From assembly GCA_001873285.1 (NCBI GenBank), contig MNYV01000076.1, positions 1 to 61,723 on the forward strand: a stretch of DNA of 61,723 nt, read 5' to 3'. The notes below the pieces were generated by a model. The model did no database searches, was not told the DNA's origin, and saw only the letters and a list, made by a program, of their open reading frames with translations. Origin of the DNA: Nitrospirae bacterium CG2_30_53_67 (GTDB taxonomy: Bacteria; CG2-30-53-67). This document shows positions 6,728 through 25,107 of this stretch, piece by piece. Both the position numbers and the translations under genes were made by a program. Within the stretch, counting starts at the first letter, position 1. The number at the start of each line of letters is the position of its first letter.

Positions 6728-6767
6728 TCCGATCCATTCTCCTTGATCCCTTTTCGTGTTCACGATC

Positions 6768-7905: not shown

Positions 7906-9066
7906 CTAAAACAAACCCTTCTTCTGCCTGGAACCCAAACATTGAGGGCAGGTTTCTCCGAGCAGCCCCAGAAAAGGCTCTCCGCAAATCCGGCAGCTCT
8001 TAGCAGATACACACATGAGCTCTCTCTCTTTTCCCTGGAGCAGTTCCTGAAGAACCACTTCCTCTTTAAACGAAACGGCCTTTGGAAGGCAGGCCTCCCC
8101 GCAAATCCGGCATCCGGTGCATTTTGAGGCATTGAAAAAAATGCGTATTTTTTTCCCCTCTTCATCCGGCTCTCTCCGGATGGCCCCGGTAGGACAGAGG
8201 GTCTCACAGACATTACAGCCGATGCAAGCCCCGGAAATCTCAAGGTCGACAACCGGGAAAACCTTAAAAGAGAGCTTCTCTTTTAGGGGTCCTCCCAGCA
8301 AAGGGAGCAATTCAAAGAGAAAGGACCGCATGGGATTCTCCCGGTGAGACCACCGGTTGATACCGGGGTCCTCCCCGGAATCAGGAATCAAATCCCTGGC
8401 GGCATCCAGGGTTCGCTTACGGAAGAAACTGAAGAGTTCCCTGCGTCCCAATCCTTCTCCGGAAGGTCTACTTTTATCCGAATGATCTTCCTTTAAAAGA
8501 TCAAAATCCTCCACTTCTTTGATCCGTTCCCCGGAAATCCCAAAACAAGAAAGCAGTTTACGTGTCCTCACGAGAAGCTGTTCATAGTGTTTCATGGATC
8601 CGAAAAAGGGACAGGTTTCACACCCGGTTCTTTTGATTAAAACCTCTTTCGCTCCCCAGGCAAAGGGGGCGATCAGATAGGCTTCCGACAGCCCGGCAAG
8701 ACAGGGAAGGACCATGACCTCCGCACGATTTTTTCTCTCGTGCATGATACAGGTCCATCGCGCAATGGAATCCGATTCCAGTTCTTTCTTGAGCCGTTCA
8801 CGCCGTTCCATCTCCTTGCGGCCGCTCAACGTGAATACCCCGTTGGGACAAGACGGGATGCATATCTCGCACCCGGAACAGCTCTCTCCGAGGACTACGG
8901 ATTGACCCAGTATATTCACCGCATCGCAAGGACACGCATTGAGGCATATTTTACAGCCTGAACGTGGATAACGGATCCTCGAACAAAGATGGGATCGAAT
9001 CCTGATGTCCGATTCCCTGGCCAACTGTCCCAGCATGCGGTTCAAAATCCCGCTCTGAAATACCAT
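7906..9066 (-). CDS. Multi-cluster 4Fe-4S ferredoxin-domain protein
   Basis: 386 aa with several CxxCxxCxxxCP motifs: CKICLNACPC, CSGCEICIPSCP, CIGCNVCETLCP, CTGCRICGEAC. Confidence 0.75.
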   Translation of the reverse strand: MVFQSGILNRMLGQLARESDIRIRSHLCSRIRYPRSGCKICLNACPCDAVNILGQSVVLGESCSGCEICIPSCPNGVFTLSGRKEMERRERLKKELESDSIARWTCIMHERKNRAEVMVLPCLAGLSEAYLIAPFAWGAKEVLIKRTGCETCPFFGSMKHYEQLLVRTRKLLSCFGISGERIKEVEDFDLLKEDHSDKSRPSGEGLGRRELFSFFRKRTLDAARDLIPDSGEDPGINRWSHRENPMRSFLFELLPLLGGPLKEKLSFKVFPVVDLEISGACIGCNVCETLCPTGAIRREPDEEGKKIRIFFNASKCTGCRICGEACLPKAVSFKEEVVLQELLQGKERELMCVSAKSCRICGEPFLGLLGETCPQCLGSRQKKGLF

Positions 9067-9153
9067 GAGTATCCTTCTTTAAAAAGATCCGGACATACGG
9101 TGTGATTGTATAACAATTTTTCTTGTGTTGGCAACCGGAAGATTTCCGAAGAT

Positions 9154-11244
9154 TTATTTTTCTTCTTGATTCATCGAACGTTTTTCAGGCTTCCTGAAGA
9201 GACTGAGGCGGTTTTTCCCTGAAGCCTTGGCGCGATATAGGGCTTTATCCGCAGCGTCTATCAAGCTCTTGATGTTCCTGGCATCTTCCGGATAGGTAGC
9301 CAGACCCGCACTGATGGTAAAATTTCCGATCGGCTGGTCTTCTTCGTAAGGAAAATAAAATTTTTCCACCTCTTTCAGGAGTCTTTCACCAATGACCACG
9401 GCCTCGCGTTTGGATGTCTGCGGGAGGACAACCGTAAACTCTTCACCTCCGTATCTTGCTACAAAATCAATATTACGGACCGTCTCCCGTATCACGGCTG
9501 CAACACTACGAAGCGCCTCATCGCCGGCCAGATGTCCATGATGATCATTGTACCATTTAAAATCATCCACATCGATCATCATCAGAGAGAGGGGATAACT
9601 ATGCCGCTGTGCCCTGGCGATCTCCTCCGTGGTCCTCTCAAAGAAATAGCGCCTGTTCAGCAGGTTGGTCAGATGATCCGTAATCAAGACCTGCTCCATC
9701 TCCTTGGACCTCTGATAAAGCTGAGTACGCTCCAGGGCTATGGCCACCTGGGAGGCGAATATCCTGACGATTTTGAGATCATCCTCATTGAAAATTTCCC
9801 CGGTGATCTTATCCGAGATGTTCAAAACACCGATGGGGCGGTCATTCATGATCAAGGGGATACTGATGAAGGATTTGGTCTTGTATTTCATTTTCTTTTT
9901 CCGCTTTACCCTCAAATCCTTTTCAATATCCTCCACCAGGAGCGGTTCCCCTTTCTCGACGACCCTGCCTGCTATGCCCTCTCCCACTTTGATGTGCAGG
10001 TTGCGGATGACGTTCTCCGGCATCCCTTTGCAGGCCTTGATGGTCAGTTCCCTGGATGCCTCATCCAGTATCATCAGCGATGCCTGTTCCGCCTTGACGA
10101 TTTCCGTGGACTTGTTCAGAATCAGATGGAAGAGCTCGTTTAATTCGCGTGTCTCACCCACCTCCGTCGTCAGCATCCCTAGGTTCGTGATATCCAGAAT
10201 CCGGTTTTTAAGCCTGATTCTGAGCTCCACATTCTGGATGGCCATGGCCGCTTGATCACAAAAGGCATGGATCATCCGGACGTTATTCTCAGAAAGTCCG
10301 GTATTCACGATGCAGATCAATCCTCTGACCTTCTGGCCCAGATAGATGGGGAAGAGATAAACCGAATGGACCTTTTCGTTAAATACCGATTTCTCGATCT
10401 GAATTCTTTCGCTGGTATACACGGGTTTGTGTTCCTTGAGGATTTGACTGACAAGGCCGTTTTGGATGCCGGGGTTGAAGGATTGGAGTCCCAATTCTTC
10501 TGCCCCGCAATAAGACTGGGTGATGAAATGCTTTCCCGATGGATCGAGAAGAACCAGAGAACACCCCGTCAGATCAAAGAGAATAGAGAGTGAATTGAGG
10601 ATCAGCCCGAAGAGTTCATGACTGTCCATGACCAGGTTGAGATCGTTTCCCAGGTGAAAGAGGCTGAAAAGTTTTGAGAAGTTCCGGCCGAAGTTCTGCG
10701 TCTGTCTGTAGGAGTCCGTCAGGGTCTGCCCCACAGAGGTTAAATAAGTTACGGCATTCTGAACCTCCCTAAACTTCCCTATCCTGAGTTCTCCGATCGC
10801 CTTGAAGAGTTGATCATGATTCAACCCGCATTCCGCCGCCAAGGCCATATACTTTGAAGAAACCGGCGCATCTGTGCATATCTTCCCACCGAAGATGGCG
10901 CCGATCACCTGTTGATCGGCCTTTAAAGGAATCGTGAAACAGAGAAGTCCGGCATAACAGATGAAGGTTACGGGCTCCCCGTCCCGAAGTGAACGGGCAA
11001 TCCGCAGCCCGCATTGCGATCTGCACCTTTGAAGCCCCTTTCCCGTGCCCCGGATCAGCCGGCACAGGTAACGTTCCTCATATGACCTGCCAAGTACCGC
11101 CCCATCGGACCCCACACATTTGATCGTCAAACCTGACAAGCGGGCGAAACCAGCCATAGACCTCTGCCATGAATCCGAAATCAGCAGTTTCCTGAAGTCT
11201 TTTTGTTCAGAAGGTTTCATGATATAACCATCCTGTCTTGACAA
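9154..11244 (-). CDS. Diguanylate cyclase with PocR-like sensor and GAF domains (PocR-GAF-GAF-GGDEF)
   Basis: 696 aa with a Cys-containing PocR-like N-terminus, two GAF-like segments and a C-terminal GGDEF domain. The active site is RYGGEEF and an RxxD I-site (RNID) lies 5 residues upstream. Confidence 0.85.
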   Translation of the reverse strand: MSRQDGYIMKPSEQKDFRKLLISDSWQRSMAGFARLSGLTIKCVGSDGAVLGRSYEERYLCRLIRGTGKGLQRCRSQCGLRIARSLRDGEPVTFICYAGLLCFTIPLKADQQVIGAIFGGKICTDAPVSSKYMALAAECGLNHDQLFKAIGELRIGKFREVQNAVTYLTSVGQTLTDSYRQTQNFGRNFSKLFSLFHLGNDLNLVMDSHELFGLILNSLSILFDLTGCSLVLLDPSGKHFITQSYCGAEELGLQSFNPGIQNGLVSQILKEHKPVYTSERIQIEKSVFNEKVHSVYLFPIYLGQKVRGLICIVNTGLSENNVRMIHAFCDQAAMAIQNVELRIRLKNRILDITNLGMLTTEVGETRELNELFHLILNKSTEIVKAEQASLMILDEASRELTIKACKGMPENVIRNLHIKVGEGIAGRVVEKGEPLLVEDIEKDLRVKRKKKMKYKTKSFISIPLIMNDRPIGVLNISDKITGEIFNEDDLKIVRIFASQVAIALERTQLYQRSKEMEQVLITDHLTNLLNRRYFFERTTEEIARAQRHSYPLSLMMIDVDDFKWYNDHHGHLAGDEALRSVAAVIRETVRNIDFVARYGGEEFTVVLPQTSKREAVVIGERLLKEVEKFYFPYEEDQPIGNFTISAGLATYPEDARNIKSLIDAADKALYRAKASGKNRLSLFRKPEKRSMNQEEK

Positions 11245-11535: not shown

Positions 11536-11573
11536 AAAAAAAAACCTCACCAATGTGCCCCATCGATGAGGTT
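11536..11573 (-). terminator. Intrinsic terminator after the DUF465 gene
   Basis: Minus-strand AACCUCAUCGAUGGGGCACAUUGGUGAGGUU followed by nine U. Confidence 0.6.
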
Positions 11574-11634
11574 ACACCCCCGCTTCCGTACATGGAGAAA
11601 GATCGCATCGCAGGACCAATCTTCTCACGCGGGT

Positions 11635-11856
11635 TTATTTCTTTTTATACCGGTCGATAATATACTGCATGTGATCCTTGGCAATCAGCTTCTGTTTTTG
11701 CAATTTTTTTCTTTCCAGATCCTCCTCTGAACTCATGAATTTCAACCTTTTCAAGTCCGAAAGCCTGCTTTCAATCTCATGATGCAATCTCGCCCATTTC
11801 TTAAAATCTTCATTTTCCGACTTCAACCGATCATATAGACCCTTCTCATTGACCAT
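11635..11856 (-). CDS. DUF465 (YdcH-like) small protein
   Basis: MVNEKGLYDRLKSENEDFKKWARLHHEIESRLSDL.. has the typical DUF465 coiled-coil pattern. ATG at 11856 has a GGAGGA RBS; the track start at 11907 is probably an over-extension. Confidence 0.7.
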   Translation of the reverse strand: MVNEKGLYDRLKSENEDFKKWARLHHEIESRLSDLKRLKFMSSEEDLERKKLQKQKLIAKDHMQYIIDRYKKK

Positions 11857-11942
11857 ACTGTTCCTCCATGACCGCAGATGCAAATCAATCAGGTCAGCAT
11901 GAATCATTCATACCATAATTTTTTGAATAACTCAAGAAAAGC

Positions 11943-12416
11943 TCATTCGGATTTCAGAGAGAATTTCATGACCAAGGCGTCTTCTTTGGTGTCGGCGTAG
12001 TATTTTTTTCTGACGCCGATTAATTGAAAGTTCGATTTTTTATAAAGGGTGATGGCTGCATGATTTCTCTCCCTGACTTCAAGAAAAATATGCCTCCCTT
12101 TCATTTTCTCAACCCTTTGGATAAGAACTTTCAATAATGCAGCGCCCACTCCCCGCCGGCGATGTGAAGGCGCCACACAGAGGTTAGTGATAAAGGCCTC
12201 GTCCAAGATGACAAAAGACGTGAGATATCCGACTAAATCCCCTTCATATCTGCAGACGAGGTTGATCCCACGGCTGTCTCGAACGGCGCTCACGAAAGAT
12301 TCTCTGCTCCACGGAGTGAGAAAGGCAGACCTTTCCATTCCGAGGATCCACTCGATATCCTTCTCGCACATATCGTGAATACGGCCGTACCCTTCAGAGA
12401 TAGGCGGCTCCATCAT
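11943..12416 (-). CDS. rimI: Ribosomal-protein-alanine N-acetyltransferase (GNAT)
   Basis: GNAT motif VAPSHRRRGVGAALL. ATGA overlap with tsaB, the usual tsaB-rimI pairing. Confidence 0.85.
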   Translation of the reverse strand: MMEPPISEGYGRIHDMCEKDIEWILGMERSAFLTPWSRESFVSAVRDSRGINLVCRYEGDLVGYLTSFVILDEAFITNLCVAPSHRRRGVGAALLKVLIQRVEKMKGRHIFLEVRERNHAAITLYKKSNFQLIGVRKKYYADTKEDALVMKFSLKSE

Positions 12417-13102
12417 GCGCGATTCCGGTAAAAAATTTCCGCCTCGGGTCTCCTGATATAGTTCGGGACCAGCGATTCATGGCTGACCGTCTGTCCGAGC
12501 TTATATTTTTGAACGGCAACCTCGCCGACAGCCGCTGCGGAAAGGAGGTTCGATGATGGAGGGACAAAAGACGCAAAAGAGCGGAGATGTTCTTTGATGA
12601 TGGATTGGTATTTTACAGCCCCTTCCCCGACAAAGAGCGTGGGCTCCTTGATGCATTCACAAAAGCGGGCCGGAGCAATGACCACCTCAGGAGAAATAAG
12701 GTTCATTTCCCCATTGATGGACCTAAATAGTCCCGCATAAACCTCTTTTTTACGCGCATCCAGCATGGCGCATATCGGAAGCCCCACCCCGCCGAAACCA
12801 TAGGCCAGGCCTAAAAGCGACGAAACCGGGATCAGGGGTTTGTTATCGGCAAAAGCCAACCCTTTCGCCGTGCTGACCGAGACACGAACGCCGGTAAAGG
12901 ACCCGGGGCCCACCGAAACAGCCACGGCATCGACCTGTTTCATGCTGAAGTCCTGATCAGAGAGGATCCTTTGTATTGCGGGAAGGAGTTTCCGGCTGTG
13001 CTTCACCTTGGAGCAGAGACTGTATTCCGAGATGAGCCCCGACTCTCCCATGAGGGCGACACTGCTGACCTCAGTGGATGCTTCAATGGAGAGAATAACC
13101 AC
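12413..13102 (-). CDS. tsaB: tRNA t6A biosynthesis protein TsaB
   Basis: ILSIEASTEVSSVAL..VAVSVGPGSFTGVRVSVSTAKGLA matches the TsaB/YeaZ pattern. Confidence 0.9.
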   Translation of the reverse strand: MVILSIEASTEVSSVALMGESGLISEYSLCSKVKHSRKLLPAIQRILSDQDFSMKQVDAVAVSVGPGSFTGVRVSVSTAKGLAFADNKPLIPVSSLLGLAYGFGGVGLPICAMLDARKKEVYAGLFRSINGEMNLISPEVVIAPARFCECIKEPTLFVGEGAVKYQSIIKEHLRSFASFVPPSSNLLSAAAVGEVAVQKYKLGQTVSHESLVPNYIRRPEAEIFYRNRA

Positions 13103-13162
13103 GGGACCCTTTCTGTGATCTTACGGGGCTCTTTTTTATAAGCCCGGATGCCTGATGATGTT

Positions 13163-13846
13163 TCATCTTTTCCATTTATGTTTCCTGGAAAAGAGCCTGT
13201 ATATCGATTGATAAAGGCGCCCTGAACGTTCCATGAAATTACGTTTGAGAAGATTCTGTTTGTCCTCATCGTCCGGATTCCCGTGAACGAAACGGTTTCT
13301 TATCTTGGAAAGGGCCTTCAAGTCAATTTCGGAAAACTGTTTGTACAGCCAGTTTCCTAAGGGATTCCAGGTGCCGCCCAGGATCATGGAGGCGCCGAAA
13401 TCAACCAGATAGGGCCGGTATCCTTTTGAGACCAGGATGTTTTTTTTGTGCTTCAGATCCGAATGGACGACCCCATGGTCATGCATACGCCGTATCAGAT
13501 CGTCAAGCGCATCAAAAAAAACCCGAGGGATGGGGGCATCCTTGGAAAACTTGGACAGAGGCACGCCATCGATAAATTCGAAGATGAATCCGTCTTTGTC
13601 TATGACTTTGTACAATTTCGGGATACCGGAGAGACCGAGAAGCTGCTGGTAGACTTTGCACTCTCGGGAGAGGAGCCACCTTCCGAAAAAAAAACGGTAA
13701 AAAAGGTTTCTTTTTGCGATATCCTTCAGAGCGGCGATGCGCCCATCCACGGAGATTTTATAGATATCCCCCTGATTCCCTTCTCCGATCACACTCACCT
13801 TGTAGGTTTCAAGGTTCCGGCGGTCTACCTGATCAAATACATCCAT
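13163..13846 (-). CDS. Small protein-kinase-like protein (RIO/Kdo-kinase-like fold)
   Basis: 227 aa with a Gly-rich loop IGEGNQGDIYK, a conserved Lys in AALKD, the catalytic loop HGVVHSDLKHKKNILV and DFG (LVDFGAS). Confidence 0.65.
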   Translation of the reverse strand: MDVFDQVDRRNLETYKVSVIGEGNQGDIYKISVDGRIAALKDIAKRNLFYRFFFGRWLLSRECKVYQQLLGLSGIPKLYKVIDKDGFIFEFIDGVPLSKFSKDAPIPRVFFDALDDLIRRMHDHGVVHSDLKHKKNILVSKGYRPYLVDFGASMILGGTWNPLGNWLYKQFSEIDLKALSKIRNRFVHGNPDDEDKQNLLKRNFMERSGRLYQSIYRLFSRKHKWKR

Positions 13847-13877
13847 GCTGGCTCGACTCCATGGACGAAGTCAACTT

Positions 13878-14894
13878 TTACCTGAACCTGTTCCAGAATA
13901 ATCCCCTCTTTTTCTTTTCATGATCTTTCAGCACAAGCGGTTCTTCCGTTCCCGCCGGGTATTCCGCTTTCTCAGTTTTTTGGGATTCAAGTTTGACGTT
14001 GATCTGCTCAAGAAGTTTCTGAATCATTTCATCCTTGAATAAAAGCGTATGCAGCTGTTCTTCTATATTCTTGATCTGCTTTTGAATCTCGTGCACGGTT
14101 CCTGCAAGGCGATCACCGCCGATTTCCGAGATCTCCTTGTCTTTGAAGGATGGCGTTGATGCCGCCTGCAAATCCCCGGCGGTCTGTTTCTCTGCCGGGT
14201 CCGCACGCGGATCATGCTCGGAAATCACCGGCGCCTCGTCTGCCGAGGAAGGTTTTTCCACTTCAGATTCCGATTCCTGAAACTCTTGAATGTCATGTTT
14301 CTTTCGGAGGTTCAACATAAGTTCTTTCGTGATCATCTTGAATGTCGGGAGGACCCCCTCTCCCGTCACTGCAACCGAGGCATAAAAGGGGACATGCCGG
14401 TGGTTGAGCCTCCGGTTCAGTTCCTCAAGGTCCATGAGATTAGGCAAATCCTGTTTGTTGTACTGCAAAACGAGAGGCATGGTCTCAGGATCCATTCCAT
14501 TGATGACCAGGTTCTCCTTCATGTTCTCAAGACTCTCCAGGTTTTTCTCCATCATCTCAACCTGCGAGTCGGCCACAAAAACCACGGCATCTGCGCCTTT
14601 GAGAACCAGTTTTCTGGTTGCATTGTAATAGACCTGTCCCGGAACCGTATAGAGCTGGAATCGTACCGTAAACCCGCGGATTTTGCCGAGATTGACAGGG
14701 AGAAAATCAAAAAAAAGCGTGCGGTCCGTGTCGGTCGCCAGAGAGAGAAGCTTTCCTCTGGTATCGGCGTTCATCTTGCTGTGGATGTACTGAAGATTCG
14801 TGGTCTTTCCGCCAAGCCCCGGACCGTAATAGACGATCTTTGCCGTGATCTCCTTATTCCCATAATTAAACAGGACCATTTTCTCCTCCTTCAC
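13878..14894 (-). CDS. MglA-family Ras-like GTPase with about 140-aa C-terminal extension
   Basis: The first ~195 aa are near-collinear with M. xanthus MglA as I recall it: KIVYYGPGLGGKTTNLQYIH, DTDRTLFFDFLP, YTVPGQVYY, VVFVADSQ, YNKQDL. An acidic, coiled-coil tail follows. Confidence 0.85.
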   Translation of the reverse strand: MKEEKMVLFNYGNKEITAKIVYYGPGLGGKTTNLQYIHSKMNADTRGKLLSLATDTDRTLFFDFLPVNLGKIRGFTVRFQLYTVPGQVYYNATRKLVLKGADAVVFVADSQVEMMEKNLESLENMKENLVINGMDPETMPLVLQYNKQDLPNLMDLEELNRRLNHRHVPFYASVAVTGEGVLPTFKMITKELMLNLRKKHDIQEFQESESEVEKPSSADEAPVISEHDPRADPAEKQTAGDLQAASTPSFKDKEISEIGGDRLAGTVHEIQKQIKNIEEQLHTLLFKDEMIQKLLEQINVKLESQKTEKAEYPAGTEEPLVLKDHEKKKRGLFWNRFR

Positions 14895-14963
14895 AACCCA
14901 TGGAGCTTGCCGTCGGCCGTCTACGGATTTGGTTGATAGATCCTTTCCATGAGAGAATGAGTC

Positions 14964-15779
14964 TCATGGCATTCCCTGACCCGGTATGCGGCTTCCTTCC
15001 TTGATCAGGCTCATGGCTTTTTCATTCTCACCGATCCAACGATAGACTGTGACAAGATGCGACCGGACGGCATTTTCACCGGGTTTCAGATCCAGGGCCT
15101 TCCGCAGATATTCCGTTGACTGATCGAAGATCCCCCTTTTGAAATAAACCCAGCCGAGGGTATCCAGCACGATGCCGTTCTGCGGTTCTGCCTTCAGAGC
15201 GTCCTTGCATAATTTCAACGCCTCATTCAAGAAGTCATTGGATTCTGCATAGGCGTAGGCCAGGTTGTTGTAGAAGAGGGGATTCGGTCCCTGAATATCT
15301 ATGGCCTTTCGAAAATGTTGAATCGCCTTTTGAATATTCCCTCGCCTCAGTTCGCAGATACCCAGTCCATTCTGAAGTTCGGCATTTTCAGGATACGGCT
15401 TCAGACCTTCCTGCAGCATCTGCAAGGCATCCTCAGTCTTTCCCTGTTTTAATAATATCACAGCCAGATTCACTCTGGCAATGAGATAACCTGAATTGAG
15501 TTCCAGCGCCTTCCGATACTGCATCCCGGCCTTGTCGATTTCCCCTTTTTTAAAATAGAGGTTTCCTAAATTGTTATAAGATCTTGGATTCCTCGGCATG
15601 CTTCGTATGATCCAAAGAAATTTTTCCTCGGCCCGGCGAAGATCTCCTTCTGAAACCAATCGGTTCGCTTCTGTAAAGACACGGTCCGCCGTTTCGTTTC
15701 CTATACCGAGTGAACCGCACCCTGAGTATAAAAAACAGAGCAGAAAAACCCTGATCATCTTCTTGGCGCAGGAAGACAT
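14964..15779 (-). CDS. TPR-repeat lipoprotein
   Basis: Signal peptide with lipobox (LYSGCGS), followed by 6-7 TPR units such as YNNLGNLYFKKGEIDKA. Confidence 0.8.
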   Translation of the reverse strand: MSSCAKKMIRVFLLCFLYSGCGSLGIGNETADRVFTEANRLVSEGDLRRAEEKFLWIIRSMPRNPRSYNNLGNLYFKKGEIDKAGMQYRKALELNSGYLIARVNLAVILLKQGKTEDALQMLQEGLKPYPENAELQNGLGICELRRGNIQKAIQHFRKAIDIQGPNPLFYNNLAYAYAESNDFLNEALKLCKDALKAEPQNGIVLDTLGWVYFKRGIFDQSTEYLRKALDLKPGENAVRSHLVTVYRWIGENEKAMSLIKEGSRIPGQGMP

Positions 15780-15791
15780 AACCGAAAGACT

Positions 15792-17141
15792 CTATGGATT
15801 CTGGACGGTTTTTTTAACGATCTTTCTGTTCCCGACTCTGTCAACCGCCACGATGGTGATCTCCGTGTCCGAAGAAATTTGGGAAAGAACATACTTAAAA
15901 CGTCCGGTTTTGTCGGGTAAGACAGGAACATCATTGATCGTGACTGCAGCATCCGGTTCCGTCTGGCCGCTGATCTGGGCATTCACTTTGCCGGAAACCT
16001 TGAGCAGGAGGAGATCATCCAGAACAATATCCGGAGGCGTCTGGTCAATGGTGATCTTGAATACGCTGTAATCACTGAAATCCCCTTCATTCCCCTCGGA
16101 TGTAATCGAACTCACACGCCAATAATAGATCCCGCTTTTTAATCCCTGGACCACCACTCCCTTCTCAGACAAGCCCGTACGGACAATGACGAGGTCCGTA
16201 AAATAGGGATCCAGCGCCACCTGTATCCGGTAGGTGACTCCCGACAGGGAATCATCCCACTTCAACACCATCTTCATCTCACTCAGATTCTTGAAAAAGA
16301 ATTCGGCCAGATTTTCAGGACTCCCCAATTTGGGAGGCGCCGGAAGATCCTTAATCTCACGGATCTTCTTCTCCTTGGAAATATCAACCGACTGGTTTCG
16401 CACAACCTCCATGGACTCCCCTCCAACCTTTACGTCTACTGCGCCGCTGAAAACCTTCAATTTGCTCTCCTGTTCCTTAGAGACCTGAACGGCCACCTTG
16501 GCCTCGGATATCTTCGCCAGAGCCGTGGGGGTCACGATCACAAACTCCGAGCCTTCGATCTTGGGGCGGCGTACAACCGCTTCCACGTCGCTTTGCAGAA
16601 GATTGATGGATGACTTTCTGATCTTGGTCAGACGGTTCTCCTTCATATCATGGATCACGACCAGTGAGTCCGGCTTGATGGTCAGCTTGTTTCCTTCATC
16701 GAAGAGAACCTCGGCATAACCGCCTGAATAGGTCCGGATAGTGTCCCCTTCTCTCAGGATCTGGTCCTTTTCCGCCTTCTGGAACTTCAACTCCTTCTGG
16801 CTCTTGACGTTCACGTCCCCTTTGACATAGACGAGCCTGGCAAAGTAGACATCCATGACATTGCTGTCGGGTTCATCCTGCTTTTTCTCAGGACTTGCCT
16901 GGAGCCCGAAAAAGGATCCTATCTTGACAAGAAAAGGAAACCGTCCTCCCTCCTTTTTCAGAAAGATGGGAAAGGATACGGCAAGGACCAGGATCAAAAT
17001 GAAGATGACAAAGACCCTCACGAGGACGCGGGGAATCCGAATCATCTTCCAGTCGAGGAGTGGTTTCCTCTCTTTTCTCATCTCTTTTCTTGTCATGACT
17101 CTATCTCTTTTCGTCCATGTCCGCGTCATTCCGCCGGTCAA
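15792..17141 (-). CDS. Membrane-anchored FecR-domain protein with FN3/Ig-like C-terminal domains
   Basis: One TM segment (VFVIFILILVLAVSFPIF), a FecR-like core (GDTIRTYSGGYAEVLFDEGNKLTIKPDS), then beta-rich domains (YYWRVSS). 4-nt overlap with the upstream HD-GYP gene. Confidence 0.65.
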   Translation of the reverse strand: MTGGMTRTWTKRDRVMTRKEMRKERKPLLDWKMIRIPRVLVRVFVIFILILVLAVSFPIFLKKEGGRFPFLVKIGSFFGLQASPEKKQDEPDSNVMDVYFARLVYVKGDVNVKSQKELKFQKAEKDQILREGDTIRTYSGGYAEVLFDEGNKLTIKPDSLVVIHDMKENRLTKIRKSSINLLQSDVEAVVRRPKIEGSEFVIVTPTALAKISEAKVAVQVSKEQESKLKVFSGAVDVKVGGESMEVVRNQSVDISKEKKIREIKDLPAPPKLGSPENLAEFFFKNLSEMKMVLKWDDSLSGVTYRIQVALDPYFTDLVIVRTGLSEKGVVVQGLKSGIYYWRVSSITSEGNEGDFSDYSVFKITIDQTPPDIVLDDLLLLKVSGKVNAQISGQTEPDAAVTINDVPVLPDKTGRFKYVLSQISSDTEITIVAVDRVGNRKIVKKTVQNP

Positions 17142-18871
17142 GCGATGTCGGGACGGACCGATGCAGGATGATGATATGGCTTTTCCTCGAGCATTTTTCT
17201 CTTGATGCCTTTGATCCGGTTGTTACGGAATGCCTGGATGAAGGCCTCGCAGACCTTGGGATCGAACCTCGTACCGGCCCAGGATTTGATCAGTTCCATC
17301 ACCTCTTCCTCGTCGGTCGCCACCTGGTAAGGTCTGTCGGATGTCATGGCATCAAAAGTGTCCGCCACGGCGATAATCCGGGCCGGCAACGGGATCTCCT
17401 CACCGCGGATCCCATCGGGATAACCCTCCCCATCGTATCGTTCGTGATGGTGGCGCATGGATGGAATGATCTTTTGGAGCTGTTTGATGGGCGCCATGAT
17501 ATTGGCCCCCTTGCCGGGATGCTGTTTGATCAGATTATACTCGGCCTTGCTCAGGCCGCTCGGCTTTCTCAGAATGCTGTCGTCGATCCCGATCTTGCCG
17601 ATATCATGGAGCAGGGCGGCAATATGGAGGATTTCTCTCGTCTTTAAATCCAGCTTCATTTCATCCGCTATGACCAGACTGTATTCCGTGACCCTCTCCG
17701 AGTGGCCGCGCGTGTAAGGATCCCTTTCGTCGATGGCTGCGGCAAGCGATGAAATCGCGCTCATGAACAGCCGCCTCATGTTCTTGTCATACAAGTCCAG
17801 CTGCTTAACCATGTAATTGAAGGTTTCGGCCAGCTGCCCGATCTCATTTTTTGCGCGTACGGTAATCTTTTCCTTGAAGTTTCCCTGGGCAATGACTAAT
17901 GCGCTCTTTGTAAAATTGATGATGGGGACACTGATCTTCCTGGCAAAAAAGATACCGATCCCGCAGACCAGGATGCCGGTGATGCCCCCCCAGACCAGGA
18001 TCTGCCGCTTCATCTCGGCCACCATGGTATAGGCATCCACACGGGGTTCCTGCACGACCACGCCCCATCCTTCAAAATCCAACGGCGCATAAGCTCCAAG
18101 CATTTCTTTCCCATTTTTGTCCGCAAAGGGGATGGCCCCTCCGGTTTTTCCCAAGGAAAGATACTTCCCGACGATCTCCACGTCCTTCATGTTTTCCTGC
18201 CGGAGAACCCCGGGACGATCCTTGCCGGCGATCAGACGGCCCAGACGGTCTATCAGATAGGCTTCACCGGACTGCCGGAAGGAGACCTTGTCCACGATCT
18301 CCCATATCTTATCCATGGACATGTCGGCAAGGAGGATCCCGGTCATGTTGTTTTCCTGAAAGACGGGAAGACCGATGGTGACGATGGCGGTTTTCTTCTC
18401 AGAAATACTCAGGGGATCGGCCACGAAGACATTCCCCTGCATGGATTGATCAAAGACCTGGTCCCGTATTTTTTTGCGTTCTTCCAAATAAAGCCCGCTC
18501 ATATCCGGCCGTACGACCTCGGCAATGGAGTTTCTCTGTGTGTCCAGCAGGGTGATGCTGATCAGATCCTTATATTCATCGAGGAAGAAGAACAGGAGCT
18601 GATATTTCTGGATATCCGAAAAGGATTGGGTCAGGGGGAGGAGCCGGGCGATGATCTCCAGTTTCTCGATGGTGTGCCTGAGGTGGCCGGAAACCTCGTC
18701 GGCGGTCTGCCTGGCCCGCTGGGCATGGGAATCCAAGAGGTCGTTTTCCAGGTATTCCTCATTGATCTTGACAAGATTTCTGTCGGATATGATCAGAGGC
18801 GCCAGGGAGATCATCAGCATCACGATGATTAACTGGAGCATCAATCGTCTTTTAGGCCTTATTTTTTGCAC
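17138..18871 (-). CDS. HD-GYP c-di-GMP phosphodiesterase with periplasmic Cache-like sensor and HAMP
   Basis: Two TM segments flank a periplasmic domain, followed by HAMP (IGQLAETFNYMV). HD-GYP motifs: HSERV, LLHDIGKIG, HHERYDGEGYPDG, DTFDAMTSDRPY. Confidence 0.85.
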   Translation of the reverse strand: MQKIRPKRRLMLQLIIVMLMISLAPLIISDRNLVKINEEYLENDLLDSHAQRARQTADEVSGHLRHTIEKLEIIARLLPLTQSFSDIQKYQLLFFFLDEYKDLISITLLDTQRNSIAEVVRPDMSGLYLEERKKIRDQVFDQSMQGNVFVADPLSISEKKTAIVTIGLPVFQENNMTGILLADMSMDKIWEIVDKVSFRQSGEAYLIDRLGRLIAGKDRPGVLRQENMKDVEIVGKYLSLGKTGGAIPFADKNGKEMLGAYAPLDFEGWGVVVQEPRVDAYTMVAEMKRQILVWGGITGILVCGIGIFFARKISVPIINFTKSALVIAQGNFKEKITVRAKNEIGQLAETFNYMVKQLDLYDKNMRRLFMSAISSLAAAIDERDPYTRGHSERVTEYSLVIADEMKLDLKTREILHIAALLHDIGKIGIDDSILRKPSGLSKAEYNLIKQHPGKGANIMAPIKQLQKIIPSMRHHHERYDGEGYPDGIRGEEIPLPARIIAVADTFDAMTSDRPYQVATDEEEVMELIKSWAGTRFDPKVCEAFIQAFRNNRIKGIKRKMLEEKPYHHPASVRPDIA

Positions 18872-20365
18872 CTATCCCTCCGGAATTTCCATGGACAGGG
18901 AATTCTTCTGCCTTCCGATCATAAAGACCGCGTTCCTTGTCCCTTCCTTGACCCGATACATGGACTGATCCGCCAGTTGGATCAGTTCGTTCTTATCCTT
19001 CACGTGGTTTGGGTAGGAGGCGATGCCGAAACTGGCCGTGAGGTGAAACGCCTCGCCTGTATCCGAATAAAACGTATACTCCTCCATGGTCTTCCTGAGG
19101 CGTTCAGAAGTGCCGAAGGCTGCTTCAGGCCCCGTCTCCGGCAGGACGGCGATGAACTCATCACCGCCATACCTGCAGATGACGTCCATGGGCCGGAGAT
19201 GATTCTTCAATATGGTCCCGATCTCCACCAGGAGCTGGCTCCCGACCAGATGTCCGAAACGATCGTTGACGCGCTTGAAATAATCAAGATCCAGGAAGAT
19301 CAGTGAAACCTGGGTATGGTACCGGTTTGCCCTTGAAATTTCGATATCAAGAGACTGATGCAGATATCTGAAGTTATAAAGCTGCGTCAATCCGTCGGTA
19401 ATGGCCAGCTCCGTCGCCTTCTTATAGAGGAGAGAGTTTTCAATCGCGATGGAAGCCTGGTCGACAAGGGTCAAAACAAGATCCAGGTCTTTCCGGTCAA
19501 AAGGCTTTCCATCAATCTTGTTGATGACCTCCAGAACGCCCAGGATCTTCCCCTTGCTGCGCAGCGGCACGCAGAGAATGGAACGCGTCTTAAAATCCAG
19601 GGAATCATCAATCTTATGGCAGAACCGTTTGTCCGTGGCGACGTCCTCCACAATGATGGGCTCACCATGAAGGGCCACCCATCCGGCGATCCCCTCCCCT
19701 ACCTTAAGCCGGAACCTCTTGATATCGTGTTTTTTCTCTCCCTCGGCCAATTCAAAGTAGAGTTCGTTCTTTTCCTCATCCAGCAGCAGCACGGAGCCGG
19801 CCTCGGCCTTGACCAGTTCATTGGTCTTTTCCATGATGATGTCGAGAATGCTTCCTGTGTCCAGTGTGGAAGTCAGGGCCTTGCCGACCTTGATGAAGTA
19901 GGAGAGTTCCCTGGTGGTTTGATCCCGTTCAGAGGTGGTGCGGATCAGATCTTCAAACTGCGCCTTGCGGTCCTCGGCCTTTCCAAGAGCAAAAATAAGC
20001 CTCTTGGCATGGATGGATAAAATGAGATAGTCGTCTATCTGTGTGATCTTCTGCTGAAAAATCGTTTCGAGATCGTCTTCGAACACCGCCAGGATCACCT
20101 GGGTCGCGGGATTCCCTTTCTTCAGGTCTTTGATCCGGTCCGTATCCCATGACGATTTCCCCACAATCAGAATGGAACCTGGTTCAGGTTGAGGGCCTTG
20201 GTTGCGGCATACCAGCGGATCGAATCTGGACCCCTGCATGAAACCCAGCAAGGCATCCTCTTCCTGACGGTTAAGACCGTGCAGATAGACCCGAACGTTT
20301 TTATTCATGGTACCGTCTTTCCTAAAGAATGATCCCGATCCCGGCTGACCTGTCTGCCGTCGCAC
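18872..20365 (-). CDS. Diguanylate cyclase (receiver-like N-terminus, GAF, GGDEF)
   Basis: GAF segment (GIAGWVALHGEPIIVEDV). GGDEF domain with RYGGDEF and an RxxD I-site (RPMD). Confidence 0.85.
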   Translation of the reverse strand: MRRQTGQPGSGSFFRKDGTMNKNVRVYLHGLNRQEEDALLGFMQGSRFDPLVCRNQGPQPEPGSILIVGKSSWDTDRIKDLKKGNPATQVILAVFEDDLETIFQQKITQIDDYLILSIHAKRLIFALGKAEDRKAQFEDLIRTTSERDQTTRELSYFIKVGKALTSTLDTGSILDIIMEKTNELVKAEAGSVLLLDEEKNELYFELAEGEKKHDIKRFRLKVGEGIAGWVALHGEPIIVEDVATDKRFCHKIDDSLDFKTRSILCVPLRSKGKILGVLEVINKIDGKPFDRKDLDLVLTLVDQASIAIENSLLYKKATELAITDGLTQLYNFRYLHQSLDIEISRANRYHTQVSLIFLDLDYFKRVNDRFGHLVGSQLLVEIGTILKNHLRPMDVICRYGGDEFIAVLPETGPEAAFGTSERLRKTMEEYTFYSDTGEAFHLTASFGIASYPNHVKDKNELIQLADQSMYRVKEGTRNAVFMIGRQKNSLSMEIPEG

Positions 20366-20376
20366 AGGCAGGCCGG

Positions 20377-21045
20377 TCAGTGACTCCCTGCATGACTGTC
20401 TCCCGATTCCGTGGAGAGTCCCCGTATAGGCTTCAACAGCGCCCGAACGGCCCCGCCCGGATGGGACGATCCGGAAACGAATGAAAGAACGGCCGCGCCG
20501 GCCGCACGGGCCTTGAAGACTTCCCTGATATTCATCGGGGTGATCCCTCCGATGCCGATCACCGGAACGCCGACCTTTCGGACCGCTTCTTCGAGCGCCT
20601 CGACGCCCGACACAGGGACCCCCTTCTTGGACCGGGTGGCAAAAACCGACCCGAAACCGATGTAGTCAGCCCCGTCTTTTTCTGCCTGCCGCGCCTCATA
20701 GAGCGAATGGGCTGTGGCGCCGATCATTCTGCCGGGATCGAGGAATCTTCGCGCCGCAGGAACAGGAAGATCCTCCGCTCCCAGATGGAGACCATCCGCA
20801 TCGGAAAGCATCGCGATGTCCAAACGGTCGTTGATCACCAGATCGGCACCATATTGCCGGGTTAAAACCCGAAGTTCCGCGGCTTCCCTGAGCTGTACCC
20901 TTCCGGGTTTTCCTTTCCCGCGATATTGAATCACCCCGGCCCCTTCCTTAAGGACGGCCTCCGCAGTCTGATGGGGGTCGGCCTCTCCGCCGACAATCAC
21001 GCAGAGTTTCCACTTCGTGCCGTTCCTTGGCATCCTCTCCTTCAT
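20377..21045 (-). CDS. thiE: Thiamine-phosphate synthase
   Basis: VIQYRGKG..LVINDRLDIAMLSDADGLHLG..ADYIGFGSVFAT..PVIGIGGI matches the ThiE pattern. Confidence 0.85.
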   Translation of the reverse strand: MKERMPRNGTKWKLCVIVGGEADPHQTAEAVLKEGAGVIQYRGKGKPGRVQLREAAELRVLTRQYGADLVINDRLDIAMLSDADGLHLGAEDLPVPAARRFLDPGRMIGATAHSLYEARQAEKDGADYIGFGSVFATRSKKGVPVSGVEALEEAVRKVGVPVIGIGGITPMNIREVFKARAAGAAVLSFVSGSSHPGGAVRALLKPIRGLSTESGDSHAGSH

Positions 21046-22394
21046 CAGATCTGCACCTTCTCCAAAAACGTCGTATAGACCTCACCGGCGAGAAATTCCG
21101 GCGCCCTCATCACTTTTTTATGAAAAGGGATCGTGGTCTTGATCCCCTGTACCACAAATTCATCCAAGGCCCTCTTCATGACGGCGATGGCTTCTGAACG
21201 GTCCTTGCCTTTCACGATCACCTTGGCGAGCAGGGAGTCGTAATTCGAGGGCACCCGGTACCCGGAATAGACCGCCGTATCCACCCGGACGTTCGGACCT
21301 CCAGGCTGAATGAACATCTCGATCAGGCCGGGGCACGGAGTAAAGGTTTCGGAATCCTCGGCGTTGATCCGGCATTCGATACTGTGACCCAGGATATGGA
21401 CCTGATCCTGCATGAAGGATAGAGGTTCGCCGGACGCAATCCTGATCTGTTCCTTGATCAGGTCAATCCCCGTGACCATTTCCGTAACCGGGTGTTCAAC
21501 CTGAATTCTTGTATTCATCTCCATAAAATAGAATTCGCCCTGGTCATCGAGAATGAATTCCACGGTCCCCGCATTGGTGTAACCTACAGCCTTCGCCGCA
21601 CAAAGGGCTGCATCACCGATCCGTTTTCGCAGGTCTTCATCCAAGGCAGGAGACGGAGATTCCTCAATCAGTTTCTGATGCCTGCGTTGAATGGAACAAT
21701 CCCTCTCACCGAGCTCAACCATGTTCCCCATTTCGTCGGCTAAGATCTGGATCTCGATATGACGGGGCTTTTCTATGTACCGCTCGATATAGACGGACGC
21801 ATCATTGAACACGGCCGCCGCCTCGGCCTTGGCCATGGCAAAAAGATGCGGCAGAGAGGCCTCGGAATGGACCACCCGCATCCCCTTGCCTCCGCCGCCT
21901 GCTGAGGCCTTGATGATGACCGGAAGACCGATTTTTCTTGCAATCTCAAGGGCTTCACGTTCGGTCTCTACGACACCTTCACTACCGGGGATCACCGGCA
22001 CCCCTGCTTGTTTCATGGTATTCCTGGCTTGGGCCTTGTTTCCCATCAATCGAATATGATCGGCGCTCGGACCGATAAACTTGATACCCGACGAGGCACA
22101 GATATCCGCGAATTCAGCATTCTCCGATAGAAACCCGTAACCGGGATGTACGGCCTCTACGTCCGTCATCTCACAGGCGCTCAGGATGTTGGGCACATTC
22201 AGATAACTCTGCCCGATGGGAGGAGGTCCCACGCAGATACTCTCGTCCGCATGTTGGACATGCAGGGAATGGGCGTCCAGATCCGAATGAATCGCCACGG
22301 TTTGAATCTCCATTTCCTTGCAGGCTCGGATGATCCGTACCGCGATCTCTCCCCGGTTTGCAATCAGGATCTTCTGAAACACATCAGTCTCCAA
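21045..22394 (-). CDS. accC: Acetyl-CoA carboxylase, biotin carboxylase subunit
   Basis: KILIANRGEIAVRIIRAC..GGGGKGMRVV..EMNTRIQVEHPVTE are canonical AccC motifs. Confidence 0.95.
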   Translation of the reverse strand: METDVFQKILIANRGEIAVRIIRACKEMEIQTVAIHSDLDAHSLHVQHADESICVGPPPIGQSYLNVPNILSACEMTDVEAVHPGYGFLSENAEFADICASSGIKFIGPSADHIRLMGNKAQARNTMKQAGVPVIPGSEGVVETEREALEIARKIGLPVIIKASAGGGGKGMRVVHSEASLPHLFAMAKAEAAAVFNDASVYIERYIEKPRHIEIQILADEMGNMVELGERDCSIQRRHQKLIEESPSPALDEDLRKRIGDAALCAAKAVGYTNAGTVEFILDDQGEFYFMEMNTRIQVEHPVTEMVTGIDLIKEQIRIASGEPLSFMQDQVHILGHSIECRINAEDSETFTPCPGLIEMFIQPGGPNVRVDTAVYSGYRVPSNYDSLLAKVIVKGKDRSEAIAVMKRALDEFVVQGIKTTIPFHKKVMRAPEFLAGEVYTTFLEKVQI

Positions 22395-22418
22395 TGATGG
22401 GGGTGAATGCTCTTTGTT

Positions 22419-22892
22419 CTACGGCAAGGGTTCCAGGATGAAAAGAGGTTCGCCGTATTCCACAGGAGACTTGTCCTCCTTCAGGATCCGGAGCACACTC
22501 CCTTTCACATCGGCTTCGATCTCATTCATCAGTTTCATGGCCTCGATGATACAAAGAGGCTGTCCTTTTTCCACGGCGCTCCCCACTTCTACAAAGGGAG
22601 GCGAATCCGGGGCAGGACACCGATAAAAGGTCCCGACCATAGGGGACTTCACCACGATTTGACCGGGGACCATCTCGGGAACGGAGGTCTCGGCGGATGC
22701 AGGGGGCTTCTCAGCATCTTCCTCTCCGGTCCGGGGAGAAGACTTGGAAGGCGCCGGTTCTTTGACGGAATGTACGCGGTGTGCCTCGCCCAGGATGATC
22801 CGGACTCTGAATCCTTCACGTTCCAATTCGATTTCTGAGATCCCGGTTCCCTGAACCATCTCGATCAATTCTTTGATCTCTTTAAGGTTCAT
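22419..22892 (-). CDS. accB: Biotin carboxyl carrier protein
   Basis: C-terminal biotinyl domain with the biotinylation motif [11 protein letters not shown]. Confidence 0.9.
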
Positions 22893-22913
22893 TTCTCTCC
22901 CCTTTGAACCACG

Positions 22914-23489
22914 CTATGGCTTCTCGGTTTCCCTGGCACGTTCTATGAATTCACCTGTCCTCGTATCGATCTTCGCCGACTCCCCTTCATTCAAATAAAG
23001 AGGCACCTTGACCACAAAACCGGTTTCCATGACCGCAGACTTGCTCCCGCCTGATGCCGTATCTCCCTTGACGCCGGGTTTGGTCTCCACGACCTTAAGC
23101 ACGACAAAATTGGGGAGTTCCAATCCGATCGGGCGCCCGTTATGAAAAAGGATCTTTGCCTGGATATTTTCCTTGAGAAAGTTTTTATTATCACCCAGCT
23201 GCTCCTCGGTCAGATAGAGCTGCTCAAAGTTCGATGTGTCCATGAAGCAGTACTGTCCCTCGGACCTGTAAAGATATTGCATCTCCCGCTCATCCAGATC
23301 GGGTTTCTCCACTTTCTCGCCTGATCGGAATGTCCTGTCGATGACCGCGCCGGTCTTGAGCCGCTTCAACCGGGTCCGGACAAATGCCCCGCCCTTGCCG
23401 GGTTTGACATGCTGAAACTCCACGATGATATAGGGCTCTCCATCCAACTCAATCTTCAATCCATTTCTGAAATCCGCCGTCGAATACAC
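22914..23489 (-). CDS. efp: Translation elongation factor P
   Basis: FRNGLKIELDGEPYIIVEFQHVKPGKGGAFVRTRLK is canonical EF-P. Confidence 0.95.
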   Translation of the reverse strand: MYSTADFRNGLKIELDGEPYIIVEFQHVKPGKGGAFVRTRLKRLKTGAVIDRTFRSGEKVEKPDLDEREMQYLYRSEGQYCFMDTSNFEQLYLTEEQLGDNKNFLKENIQAKILFHNGRPIGLELPNFVVLKVVETKPGVKGDTASGGSKSAVMETGFVVKVPLYLNEGESAKIDTRTGEFIERARETEKP

Positions 23490-23554
23490 TGATTCCTCCT
23501 TGAGATCCTATCCCGTCAAACTATTTTATAATGAAATATCAGAAAAATCCAACA

Positions 23555-24643
23555 CTAAACTTCTCCTTCCACGGCCTTCCATCCCTTGGAAAGGGTAGTC
23601 AAGACACGGCACCCGTCCACGGTGACCTGAACCATGTCTTCAATCCTGACCCCGCCCAAACCCGGGATGTAAATCCCAGGCTCCACGGTGAAGACCATCC
23701 CTTCACGGATGCGCATCCGGTTCTTCGGAGCCACATGAGGCAGTTCGTGGACCTCCAAACCGATACCGTGTCCGGTTCCATGACCGAAATATTTACCAAA
23801 GCCCGCTTTTTGAATCATTTTTCTTGCTGTTGCATCAATTTCTGCCAGATATTTACCTGGTTTAATCGCACGAATCGCTTCATTTTGCGCATCGAGGACC
23901 GTCTCGAAGATCTTCCGTTTCTTGCCGGCGAACCGTTTCCCGATAAACAAGGTTCGAGTCATGTCGGAAAAATAACCGCCGCATTCCGCCCCGAAATCCA
24001 CAACCACAAGATCCCCTTGCATCAACCTCTTTTCCGATGCCGTGCCGTGCGGCATGGCCGACCGCTCGCCTGATGAAACGATCAGGTCAAATGCAGCACG
24101 GGCTGCCCCCGCCCTGCGTATCAATCCCTCCATGGAAAGTGCGATCTCCCTTTCGGAGATGCCGGCACGAATCTTTTTTCTTACCGTTTTGAATGCCTCT
24201 TCCGCCCGGCGTACGGCCTTAAGGATCTTCCGGACCTCTGCTTCGGATTTGATCATCCTGATGGATTCCAGACCCGCTGTCACCGGAATGAGACGAATCG
24301 GGGAGATTTTTTTCCTTAATTCCTGGAAGGACTGAAACCTCAGATCTTCAGGTTCAAAACCGAGCCGGCCGATCCTTGTTTTTTTCAGCAGACGGAGGAT
24401 CCGTTCCGGAACTTTCTCGTTCTTTTTAAGAACCTGGATATGGAAACCGGCGATTTCCTGCTCCGATTGGACGGCATATCGTGAATCGGTGATGAAATAA
24501 TCATGAGAGGATGCGATCAGGATGACCCCGGCCGAACCTGTAAATCCTGAAAGGTATCGGACATTCTCCCTCTTGCTCACCAGAAAGGCATCCACCCGGT
24601 TTTTTTGAAGGAGTTCATGGACAGCATCCATTGACCTCTTCAT
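23555..24643 (-). CDS. Xaa-Pro aminopeptidase (peptidase M24B)
   Basis: [41 protein letters not shown] are the M24 metal-ligand motifs. Confidence 0.9.
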
Positions 24644-25092: not shown

Positions 25093-25107
25093 AAAAGCGT
25101 GTCCATT

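Follow-up and report, generated by a model that had tools for sequence, protein, structure and literature searches.

Which of the genes around an unusual MglA-type GTPase of Nitrospirae bacterium CG2_30_53_67 belong with it, and what would they do together? The GTPase, here called MglA-CT, is encoded on contig MNYV01000076.1 (assembly GCA_001873285.1), which was analyzed over its full length of 61,723 nucleotides (nt) and is referred to below as the window. The region under study spans positions 13163 to 20365 and contains six open reading frames (ORFs), all on the minus strand. An earlier note on this DNA had described an MglA with an acidic, coiled-coil tail in a gene string that could be a polarity or surface-sensing module coupled to cyclic di-GMP (c-di-GMP) rather than a chance neighborhood. 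Here, MglA-CT is found to be a genuine MglA with a conserved C-terminal extension, and the gene with which its relatives are linked across lineages encodes a diguanylate cyclase. On balance, we favor the reading that MglA-CT is a membrane-associated MglA paralogue coupled to the local synthesis and turnover of c-di-GMP.

A tailed MglA paralogue

Pfam places the GTPase among the Arf/Ras small GTPases, and its N-terminal part matched Myxococcus xanthus MglA (PDB 6h17) with an E value of 3e-77 over residues 8 to 198. The positions of its hallmark motifs (P-loop GPGLGGKTT, DTDRTLFFDF, TVPGQ, and NKQD) were invariant in an alignment of 50 homologues, including R53, T78, Q82, and the NKxD equivalents. 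Within YTVPGQ, the MglA-type threonine T78 replaces the conserved aspartate of the G3 (DxxG) motif, a substitution described for MglA (PMC3000849), and the catalytic glutamine is present as well. The AlphaFold2 (AF2) model reached a predicted local distance difference test score (pLDDT) of about 90 across the core of this domain. The protein therefore has all the MglA hallmarks that had been read from its translation, and its G domain is complete and predicted to be catalytically competent. The longest ORF starts at a GTG codon (Table 1); the ATG at 14879 is the likely start because it is preceded by a ribosome-binding site (GGAGGAG) and because every orthologue begins MVLFNY, giving a protein of 333 rather than 338 amino acids (aa).

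The C-terminal tail, previously described as an acidic and coiled-coil extension of about 140 aa, is real and conserved, but its most conserved element proved to be a basic-aromatic patch at the extreme C terminus. Full-length orthologues of 323 to 338 aa were found in 7 relatives, all of the same family and spread over five genera, with 57 to 73% full-length identity. A frameshift or other artifact as the source of the tail was ruled out by continuous ORFs in 8 genomes and by more than 100 metagenomic homologues. The tail comprises 138 aa in three elements, namely a disordered acidic linker, a helix of about 48 residues, and the terminal patch. The linker was poorly conserved in alignments and had a pLDDT of 40 to 52 in the AF2 model. 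The helix retained a hydrophobic pattern among orthologues (L..AV.QIQ.QI..xE.QL..LL..D....LL.QI..KL) and, judging from the model, is a candidate coiled-coil or interaction helix. A short spacer, EEPIxLEE, lies between the helix and the extreme C terminus, where the patch reads KKKRGLFWNRFR in MglA-CT and KKRWFRF in other homologues; within the family, KK(K/R)GFFWNR is invariant at this position. Overall, the AF2 model of MglA-CT had a mean pLDDT of 73, with a well-folded G domain and an unstructured C-terminal end.

Searches of Pfam and the PDB with the tail returned no match other than nonsignificant hits to the GCN4 zipper. A profile of the FFWNR-type tail searched against 1.84 billion representative sequences gave 8 hits, and the convincing ones were all this GTPase or fragments of it. 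An amphipathic helix of the MinD or FtsA type was considered for the C-terminal end and rejected, the hydrophobic moment being 0.10 to 0.33 in MglA-CT and its family variants versus 0.71 for KTKKRWFRF. The composition of the patch, with its net charge of +5 and its Phe and Trp residues, still fits a basic-hydrophobic membrane patch. It is thus a candidate membrane-binding or docking motif, and the tail probably holds the GTPase at the membrane.

MglA homologues numbered in the thousands in a search of 5.8 billion proteins, and the best 120 were inspected. Nearly all of these were 300 to 520 aa long, many came from metagenome-assembled genomes (MAGs) of Nitrospirota/Thermodesulfovibrionales, and they were annotated merely as "GTPase domain-containing protein." A polybasic-aromatic end, typically KKRWFRF or KKSWFRFS, was present in 102 of the 120, and the alignment showed the linker, the helix, and a K/R-rich patch followed by W/F in the Nitrospirota-type homologues as well. 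In a tree built on the first 200 residues (the G domain only, with no tail columns, and with SofG not included), canonical short MglAs, comprising that of M. xanthus and the short copies of the family, grouped with a Shimodaira-Hasegawa approximate likelihood ratio test (SH-aLRT) support of 91. Extended MglAs grouped at 89, and the clades with FFWNR and KKxWF tails were each supported at 99. MglA-CT falls within the extended group and not with the MglB-coupled MglAs or that of M. xanthus, in what is a quick tree with moderate deep support. MglA-CT apparently represents a widespread, phylogenetically distinct, and undescribed MglA subfamily. That the published classification took only proteins of 150 to 240 aa (PMC4316618) would account for this group having been overlooked; MglA-CT, at 333 aa, lies outside this Group 1 size range. 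The searchable literature yielded no account of an MglA with a tail or with membrane targeting.

Other types of extension occur among MglAs. They include a beta-rich C-terminal domain (271 to 395 aa), an acidic form of 395 aa, and a MinD-like end, which reads EEKKGLFRRLFGK in P0065 and KKRGFFKRLFGIR in L014 (genome G032; 352 aa). The loci with these other types (L014 [G032], L056 to L059 and L061, and L009 and L019) have no GGDEF neighbor.

The earlier note had remarked that no mglB is adjacent to the GTPase gene. This is true, and no Roadblock/LC7 hit was obtained near the gene or anywhere in the MAG; under the definition in PMC4316618, by which a coupled mglA has mglB within four genes, MglA-CT is an orphan. 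Neither mglB nor a second mglA was found in this MAG, which measures 2.37 Mb and is 95% complete. In all 7 relatives carrying the tailed gene, another contig bears a canonical mglB-mglA operon, and each of 4 distant genomes with a tailed MglA has exactly one tailed copy and one short copy adjacent to mglB. Close homologues of the genes that flank mglBA in a congener, including a pyruvate:ferredoxin oxidoreductase gene, are also absent from the MAG. Since these flanks are missing as well, the absence of mglB is best explained by an unassembled region, and the data do not support a loss of MglB, all relatives with the tailed gene having mglBA. MglA-CT is therefore a paralogue found alongside the canonical MglB-MglA module and not a replacement for it, and a lack of MglB does not characterize the system.

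About 10 kb upstream of the GTPase gene, on the same strand, lies a 118-aa ORF (25108-25464, minus strand), preceded by an ORF for an acidic 293-aa protein with one TPR (25446-26327, minus strand). Orthologues of the 118-aa ORF in three relatives match Roadblock/LC7 weakly (18 to 24.5 bits), its own copy has no Pfam hit, and two distant tailed-MglA genomes contain 122-aa ORFs with weak Roadblock similarity. Comparison of the 118-aa ORF with an MglB profile by hhalign gave a probability of 2%, and the AF2 model (pLDDT, 38.6) was unusable. Judged by such sequence similarity, this ORF could encode a divergent MglB/MglC-like partner.

A diguanylate cyclase linked to tailed MglAs

To compare the surroundings of MglA-CT with those of its relatives, 10 tailed-MglA loci from other lineages were analyzed. 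At 8 of these 10 outside loci, a GAF-GGDEF gene lies directly upstream of the tailed MglA gene on the same strand, with gaps of 1 to 21 nt. At the ninth, a plain GGDEF gene takes this position, and at the tenth, a GAF-kinase-receiver-GGDEF gene lies at a distance of 1.4 kb. The outside-locus cyclase is usually preceded by secA, with an 8-nt overlap, and the genes downstream of the GTPase vary by locus. When five of the outside-locus cyclases were searched against the genome of MglA-CT, all found their best match in the cyclase at 18872-20365, with 44 to 52% identity over about 340 aa and 305 to 390 bits, compared with 181 to 229 bits for the next GGDEF paralogue. As this match is clearly the best in the genome, the cyclase at 18872-20365 is the orthologous partner, and in the family of MglA-CT three genes have come between the cyclase and the GTPase. 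The string of secA, cyclase, and tailed MglA with the 8-nt secA overlap was seen in the Nitrospirota-type loci L048, L050, L054, and L055 (about 4600-7630).

A GGDEF gene within 1.5 kb was found at none of 22 other MglA loci (17 for short MglAs, of which 13 have an mglB neighbor, and 5 for MglAs extended in other ways), and no GGDEF gene was found near 6 further extended MglA loci with several kilobases of flanking sequence. Because the other extended MglAs have no such neighbor, the cyclase link is specific to the group with basic-aromatic tails. The cyclase is also the only neighbor of tailed MglAs that is kept across lineages. This gene linkage suggests an undescribed tie between a polarity GTPase and a second messenger.

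The partner cyclase, whose probable start is the ATG at 20308, scored 156 bits against the Pfam GGDEF family, and its RYGGDEF motif and RxxD I-site (R372..D375) were invariant in 12 orthologues. Its N-terminal domain had no Pfam hit. A profile of this domain matched nearly only receiver domains in the PDB, and weakly so (E values of 2e-4 to 1e-3); since no acidic pocket is conserved in it, we take it to be a pseudo-receiver.

The cyclase takes part in a second recurrent linkage. In a distant family (genome G035; locus L064, C77:36000-54000), genes for a GAF-GGDEF protein, a dCache-HAMP-HD-GYP protein, and a FecR/DUF7354 protein lie in a row at 5023-9709, with 4-nt overlaps at both junctions. 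The identities to the proteins studied here are 41% for the cyclase, 34% for the full-length HD-GYP protein, and 29 to 31% for the FecR protein. No MglA gene lies near this trio, and two GT2 glycosyltransferase genes follow a little further downstream; the trio may control exopolysaccharide synthesis by making and breaking c-di-GMP. The cyclase is thus common to two linkages that come together in the six-gene string at 13163-20365, one with MglA-CT and one with the HD-GYP and FecR genes. The orthologous cyclase upstream of tailed MglAs at 8 of 10 outside loci and the recurrence of the trio bear out the proposal that the association with c-di-GMP goes beyond a chance neighborhood.

The surrounding gene string

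All six co-directional ORFs that had been described in the region are present, and their domain assignments are backed by Pfam, with NCBIfam as a second source (Table 1).

Table 1. Coordinates of the six ORFs in the window and of the parts of MglA-CT
Feature	Position	Strand	Details
Receiver-like-GAF-GGDEF diguanylate cyclase	18872..20365	-	497 aa; Pfam GAF and GGDEF
Membrane sensor phosphodiesterase (predicted), transmembrane (TM)-dCache_1 (periplasmic)-TM-HAMP-HD-GYP	17138..18871	-	577 aa; Pfam
Single-pass membrane protein with periplasmic FecR/DUF7354 and Ig-like domains	15792..17141	-	449 aa; Pfam
TPR protein with N-terminal signal peptide and lipobox-like YSGC	14964..15779	-	271 aa; TPR families
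Tailed MglA paralogue MglA-CT	13878..14894	-	Longest ORF, 338 aa from GTG 14894
MglA G domain, aa 1-195	14295..14879	-	P-loop GPGLGGKTT, Arg in DTDRTLFFDF, TVPGQ, NKQD
Acidic Pro/Ser-rich linker, aa 196-255	14115..14294	-	Variable, net charge about -11, predicted disordered
Single long helix (predicted), aa 256-303	13971..14114	-	AF2 pLDDT about 85, 3-4 hydrophobic spacing
Basic-aromatic patch HEKKKRGLFWNRFR	13881..13922	-	Extreme C terminus, net charge +5
Mini-kinase, Pkinase/RIO1/Kdo-like	13163..13846	-	227 aa

The best-surviving alternative to our reading is that all six genes constitute a single operon dedicated to polarity or surface sensing and coupled to c-di-GMP. The genes are co-directional and tightly spaced, and each of the 7 relatives with the locus has them in the same order. 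MglA-CT, the mini-kinase, and the FecR protein are jointly present in the family and jointly absent from its sister family, the two linkages of the cyclase recur elsewhere, and the C terminus of the mini-kinase is basic-aromatic like that of the GTPase. However, the synteny among the 7 relatives extends equally to pepP-efp-accB-accC-thiE upstream and tsaB-rimI downstream, and we therefore discarded within-family synteny as uninformative about a module. The joint presence and absence of the three genes amounts to a single evolutionary event. Neither the mini-kinase gene nor the TPR lipoprotein gene flanks a tailed MglA at any of the 10 outside loci, distant kinase homologues lie in genomes or places without MglA, and the six genes are not delimited by a terminator or promoter. 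The full string, the mini-kinase, and the TPR lipoprotein are confined to one family, so the six genes did not hold up as one conserved module, and we consider a six-gene operon of this kind somewhat unlikely.

Three junctions of 0 to 4 nt had been reported, but only two of the five are of this kind: the GGDEF and HD-GYP genes abut (0 nt), and the HD-GYP and FecR genes overlap by 4 nt. Both junctions depend on GTG or TTG starts, and the orthologues of the FecR and GGDEF genes suggest later ATG starts. Tight spacing is not confined to the six genes, since thiE lies 11 nt from the GGDEF gene, accC and thiE overlap by 1 nt, and tsaB and rimI overlap by 4 nt. The whole co-directional string comprises 17 genes from 26327 to 11635 and is tightly spaced all along; the sole convincing intrinsic terminator in about 15 kb lies at 11573-11543, after rimI and a 90-aa ORF.

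This strong terminator and the best promoter-like site (26367-26340) bracket the seventeen minus-strand genes (11543-26367), among which housekeeping genes (aroQ, pepP, efp, accBC, thiE, tsaB, and rimI) are mixed with signaling genes. In scans of the string for promoters and terminators, the counts were not above those of shuffled controls. Just past the terminator lies a gene for a second cyclase (9154-11244, minus strand; 696 aa), which combines a Cys-rich sensor region at the N terminus with GAF domains in tandem and a GGDEF domain and is likewise syntenic in the family (ORFs of 683 to 707 aa in the relatives). At the other end, two adjoining genes at 26401-27813 and 27848-28861 (both plus strand) are divergent from the minus-strand string and, by eye, resemble sigma-54-type activators; one combines a receiver, an AAA+ domain, and a helix-turn-helix domain, and the other has AAA+ and helix-turn-helix domains without a receiver.

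Among the individual neighbors, the dCache-HAMP-HD-GYP protein is a predicted c-di-GMP phosphodiesterase: its HD_5 domain scored 132.5 bits (Pfam), and the motif HHERYDGEGYPDG, read from the translation, corresponds to the HHE...GYP signature. The FecR protein (FecR, 36 bits; a subthreshold Ig hit to Big_6, 19 bits; one TM helix) is weakly LipL45/Lsa33-like and, apart from the homologue in the G035 trio, was found only in the family of MglA-CT. The signal sequence of the TPR protein was read by eye, and the protein is probably a periplasmic or outer membrane lipoprotein. The mini-kinase carries a G-loop (GEGNQG), the Lys in AALKD, HSDLKHKKN, and DFG, all invariant in 6 orthologues, lacks the substrate-binding C-lobe, and ends in the basic-aromatic FSRKHKWKR (conserved tail YRLFSRKHKWKR), similar to the adjoining GTPase. 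It scored 39.3 bits against Pkinase (cutoff, 31.7) and 27.6 bits against RIO1 (cutoff, 22), with a weak Kdo match, and has by these features a generic minimal protein-kinase-like fold. Its gene sits between that of MglA-CT and tsaB-rimI. A Bud32-like partner of TsaB was considered and rejected, as the Bud32 models gave 18 to 30 bits against cutoffs of 125 to 246. Neither of two distant mini-kinase homologues inspected lies beside an MglA or a tsaB gene.

Mechanism, alternatives, and relation to known systems

The descriptive claims, on the G domain and its catalytic residues, the tail and its conservation, the paralogy, and the linkage to an orthologous cyclase, are secure, and the mechanism that follows is plausible. 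Membrane binding, a physical interaction, a direction of control, and any role in polarity or motility are inferences. Needing no lipid anchor, the basic-aromatic end would tether the GTPase to the inner face of the cytoplasmic membrane, the long linker would let the G domain reach its partners, and the helix would mediate dimerization or partner binding. In its GTP state, MglA-CT would then recruit or activate the cyclase through the pseudo-receiver domain, leading to local c-di-GMP production. This is the simplest model because pseudo-receiver and TPR proteins are among the known effectors of MglA-GTP and because a hub of MglA, a TPR protein, and a c-di-GMP receptor (CdgA) works in Bdellovibrio (PMC3983030). 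In the family of MglA-CT, the dCache-HAMP-HD-GYP, FecR/Ig, and TPR proteins would form an opposing, envelope-facing degradation arm, which together with the cyclase-GTPase pair would make up a make-and-break c-di-GMP unit at the membrane. The mini-kinase is a lineage-specific neighbor. In a fuller form, which we offer only tentatively, an ancient pair of MglA-CT and cyclase, in which a lipid-free but membrane-tethered GTPase spatially gates c-di-GMP synthesis, would here have been fused with the HD-GYP/FecR/TPR arm, and possibly with a membrane-associated mini-kinase, into a complete make-and-break device at a defined membrane site.

Several points weigh against coupling of a membrane-associated MglA-CT to c-di-GMP turnover. 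The helical hydrophobic moment of the terminal motif is low and the motif is not a classic MinD-type helix, so that the case for membrane binding is one of composition. The tie between GTPase and cyclase is known here from gene linkage. The 8 loci with an adjacent cyclase nearly all have secA upstream and possibly represent one ancestral arrangement; the independent evidence therefore comes from two or three lineages, not ten. In the region studied here, the cyclase gene does not adjoin the GTPase gene, three others lying between them, and the region is part of one long co-directional string that includes housekeeping genes. Genes resembling orthologues of the cyclase also occur unlinked in genomes with other MglA types. 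Finally, a cytoplasmic GTPase could have no direct contact with the TPR and FecR proteins, which lie largely in the periplasm.

A further explanation assigns the tail another function. The patch would be a docking peptide, for example for the GAF or receiver-like domain of the cyclase, or a nucleotide- or c-di-GMP-binding element, and the helix would fold onto its own G domain and regulate it from within, in the way that the C-terminal helix of MglB does in trans. The position of the motif at the very C terminus, its sharp conservation within each clade (KKKGFFWNR versus KKRWFRF), and the low hydrophobic moment, which speaks against a MinD-type helix, are consistent with docking, and PMC6785124 describes the MglB C-terminal helix as binding MglA allosterically. 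A polybasic and aromatic segment with a net charge of +4 to +6 after a long flexible linker is, however, typical of peripheral membrane binding, related extended MglAs have the MinD-like ends given above for P0065 and L014, and the AF2 model predicts an isolated helix. To our knowledge, the patch also fits no c-di-GMP-binding motif, which we count against this explanation, and we regard it as unlikely. A last explanation is that the neighborhood lacks functional meaning. The tailed MglA would act as canonical MglA or SofG does, on targets in motility or polarity (type IV pili, for example), and its proximity to the c-di-GMP genes would be inherited synteny. This is distinctly improbable: the genome does encode 7 PilB/PilT/GspE-type ATPases, the neighborhoods of the MglA family are reported to vary widely (PMC4316618), and the order of secA, cyclase, and MglA-CT could be a frozen accident of one phylum, but linkage of the cyclase is retained in a second lineage with no further synteny in common (thiE instead of secA upstream and different genes downstream), the spacing of 1 to 21 nt suggests cotranslation, and the pair persists while the downstream genes change freely.

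Returning to the reading that MglA-CT is a membrane-associated paralogue tied to c-di-GMP, we compared it with known systems. MglA-CT shares the intrinsic arginine finger, the catalytic Gln, the G3 Thr, and NKxD with the Group 1 MglAs of M. xanthus and Thermus thermophilus (PDB 6h17, 5ymx, and 3t12). It differs from canonical MglA in its length (333 versus about 195 aa), in its conserved linker, helix, and basic-aromatic tail, in its location away from mglB, in its separate placement on the G-domain tree, and in its genomic pairing with a GGDEF cyclase. SofG of M. xanthus and the MglA of Bdellovibrio bacteriovorus are likewise MglA-family GTPases encoded away from mglB. SofG has 239 aa (PMC4316618) and, unlike MglA-CT, was not found reported in the literature to have a C-terminal basic-aromatic tail or a cyclase pairing. 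The MglA of Bdellovibrio is a short form from a genome that has lost mglB; genomes with MglA-CT, by contrast, keep mglBA. By analogy, the flexible spacer followed by a cluster of Lys/Arg and Phe/Trp would resemble the polybasic hypervariable regions of Ras and Rho and MARCKS-type clusters, although MglA-CT, in contrast to Ras and Rho, has no CaaX box or other lipidation signal. Some relatives end similarly to the targeting sequences of MinD and FtsA (EEKKGLFRRLFGK), whereas the end of MglA-CT itself is not amphipathic as a helix.

For the cyclase, the nearest parallels are effectors of MglA and known cyclases. FrzS works with MglA in the control of type IV pili and has an atypical receiver without a phosphorylation site (PMC1974792). 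The partner cyclase, similar to the pseudo-receiver effectors FrzS and AglZ, starts with a receiver-like domain without a conserved acidic pocket and, like the receiver-GGDEF cyclases PleD and WspR, has an intact GGDEF active site and the RxxD I-site, as in active cyclases. It differs from all four in that its receiver similarity is weak (E value of 2e-4, no Pfam hit) and in its placement of a GAF domain between the receiver-like domain and the GGDEF domain.

Among bacteria, MglA serves as the model of a Ras-like polarity switch and is treated as a small soluble protein under the control of MglB and RomRX. A spacer and membrane anchor are common to nearly all eukaryotic small GTPases, and no report of a membrane anchor on MglA was found in the literature. 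A large and distinct MglA subfamily, whose members in the family of MglA-CT are uncultured MAGs from groundwater and other sources, would add a built-in spacer, a helix, and a probable membrane anchor to this switch. Its pairing across lineages with one diguanylate cyclase points to a direct connection between a small GTPase and c-di-GMP. If this is true, a GTPase-gated cyclase would be a bacterial counterpart of the membrane-anchored small GTPases of eukaryotes that recruit an effector enzyme.

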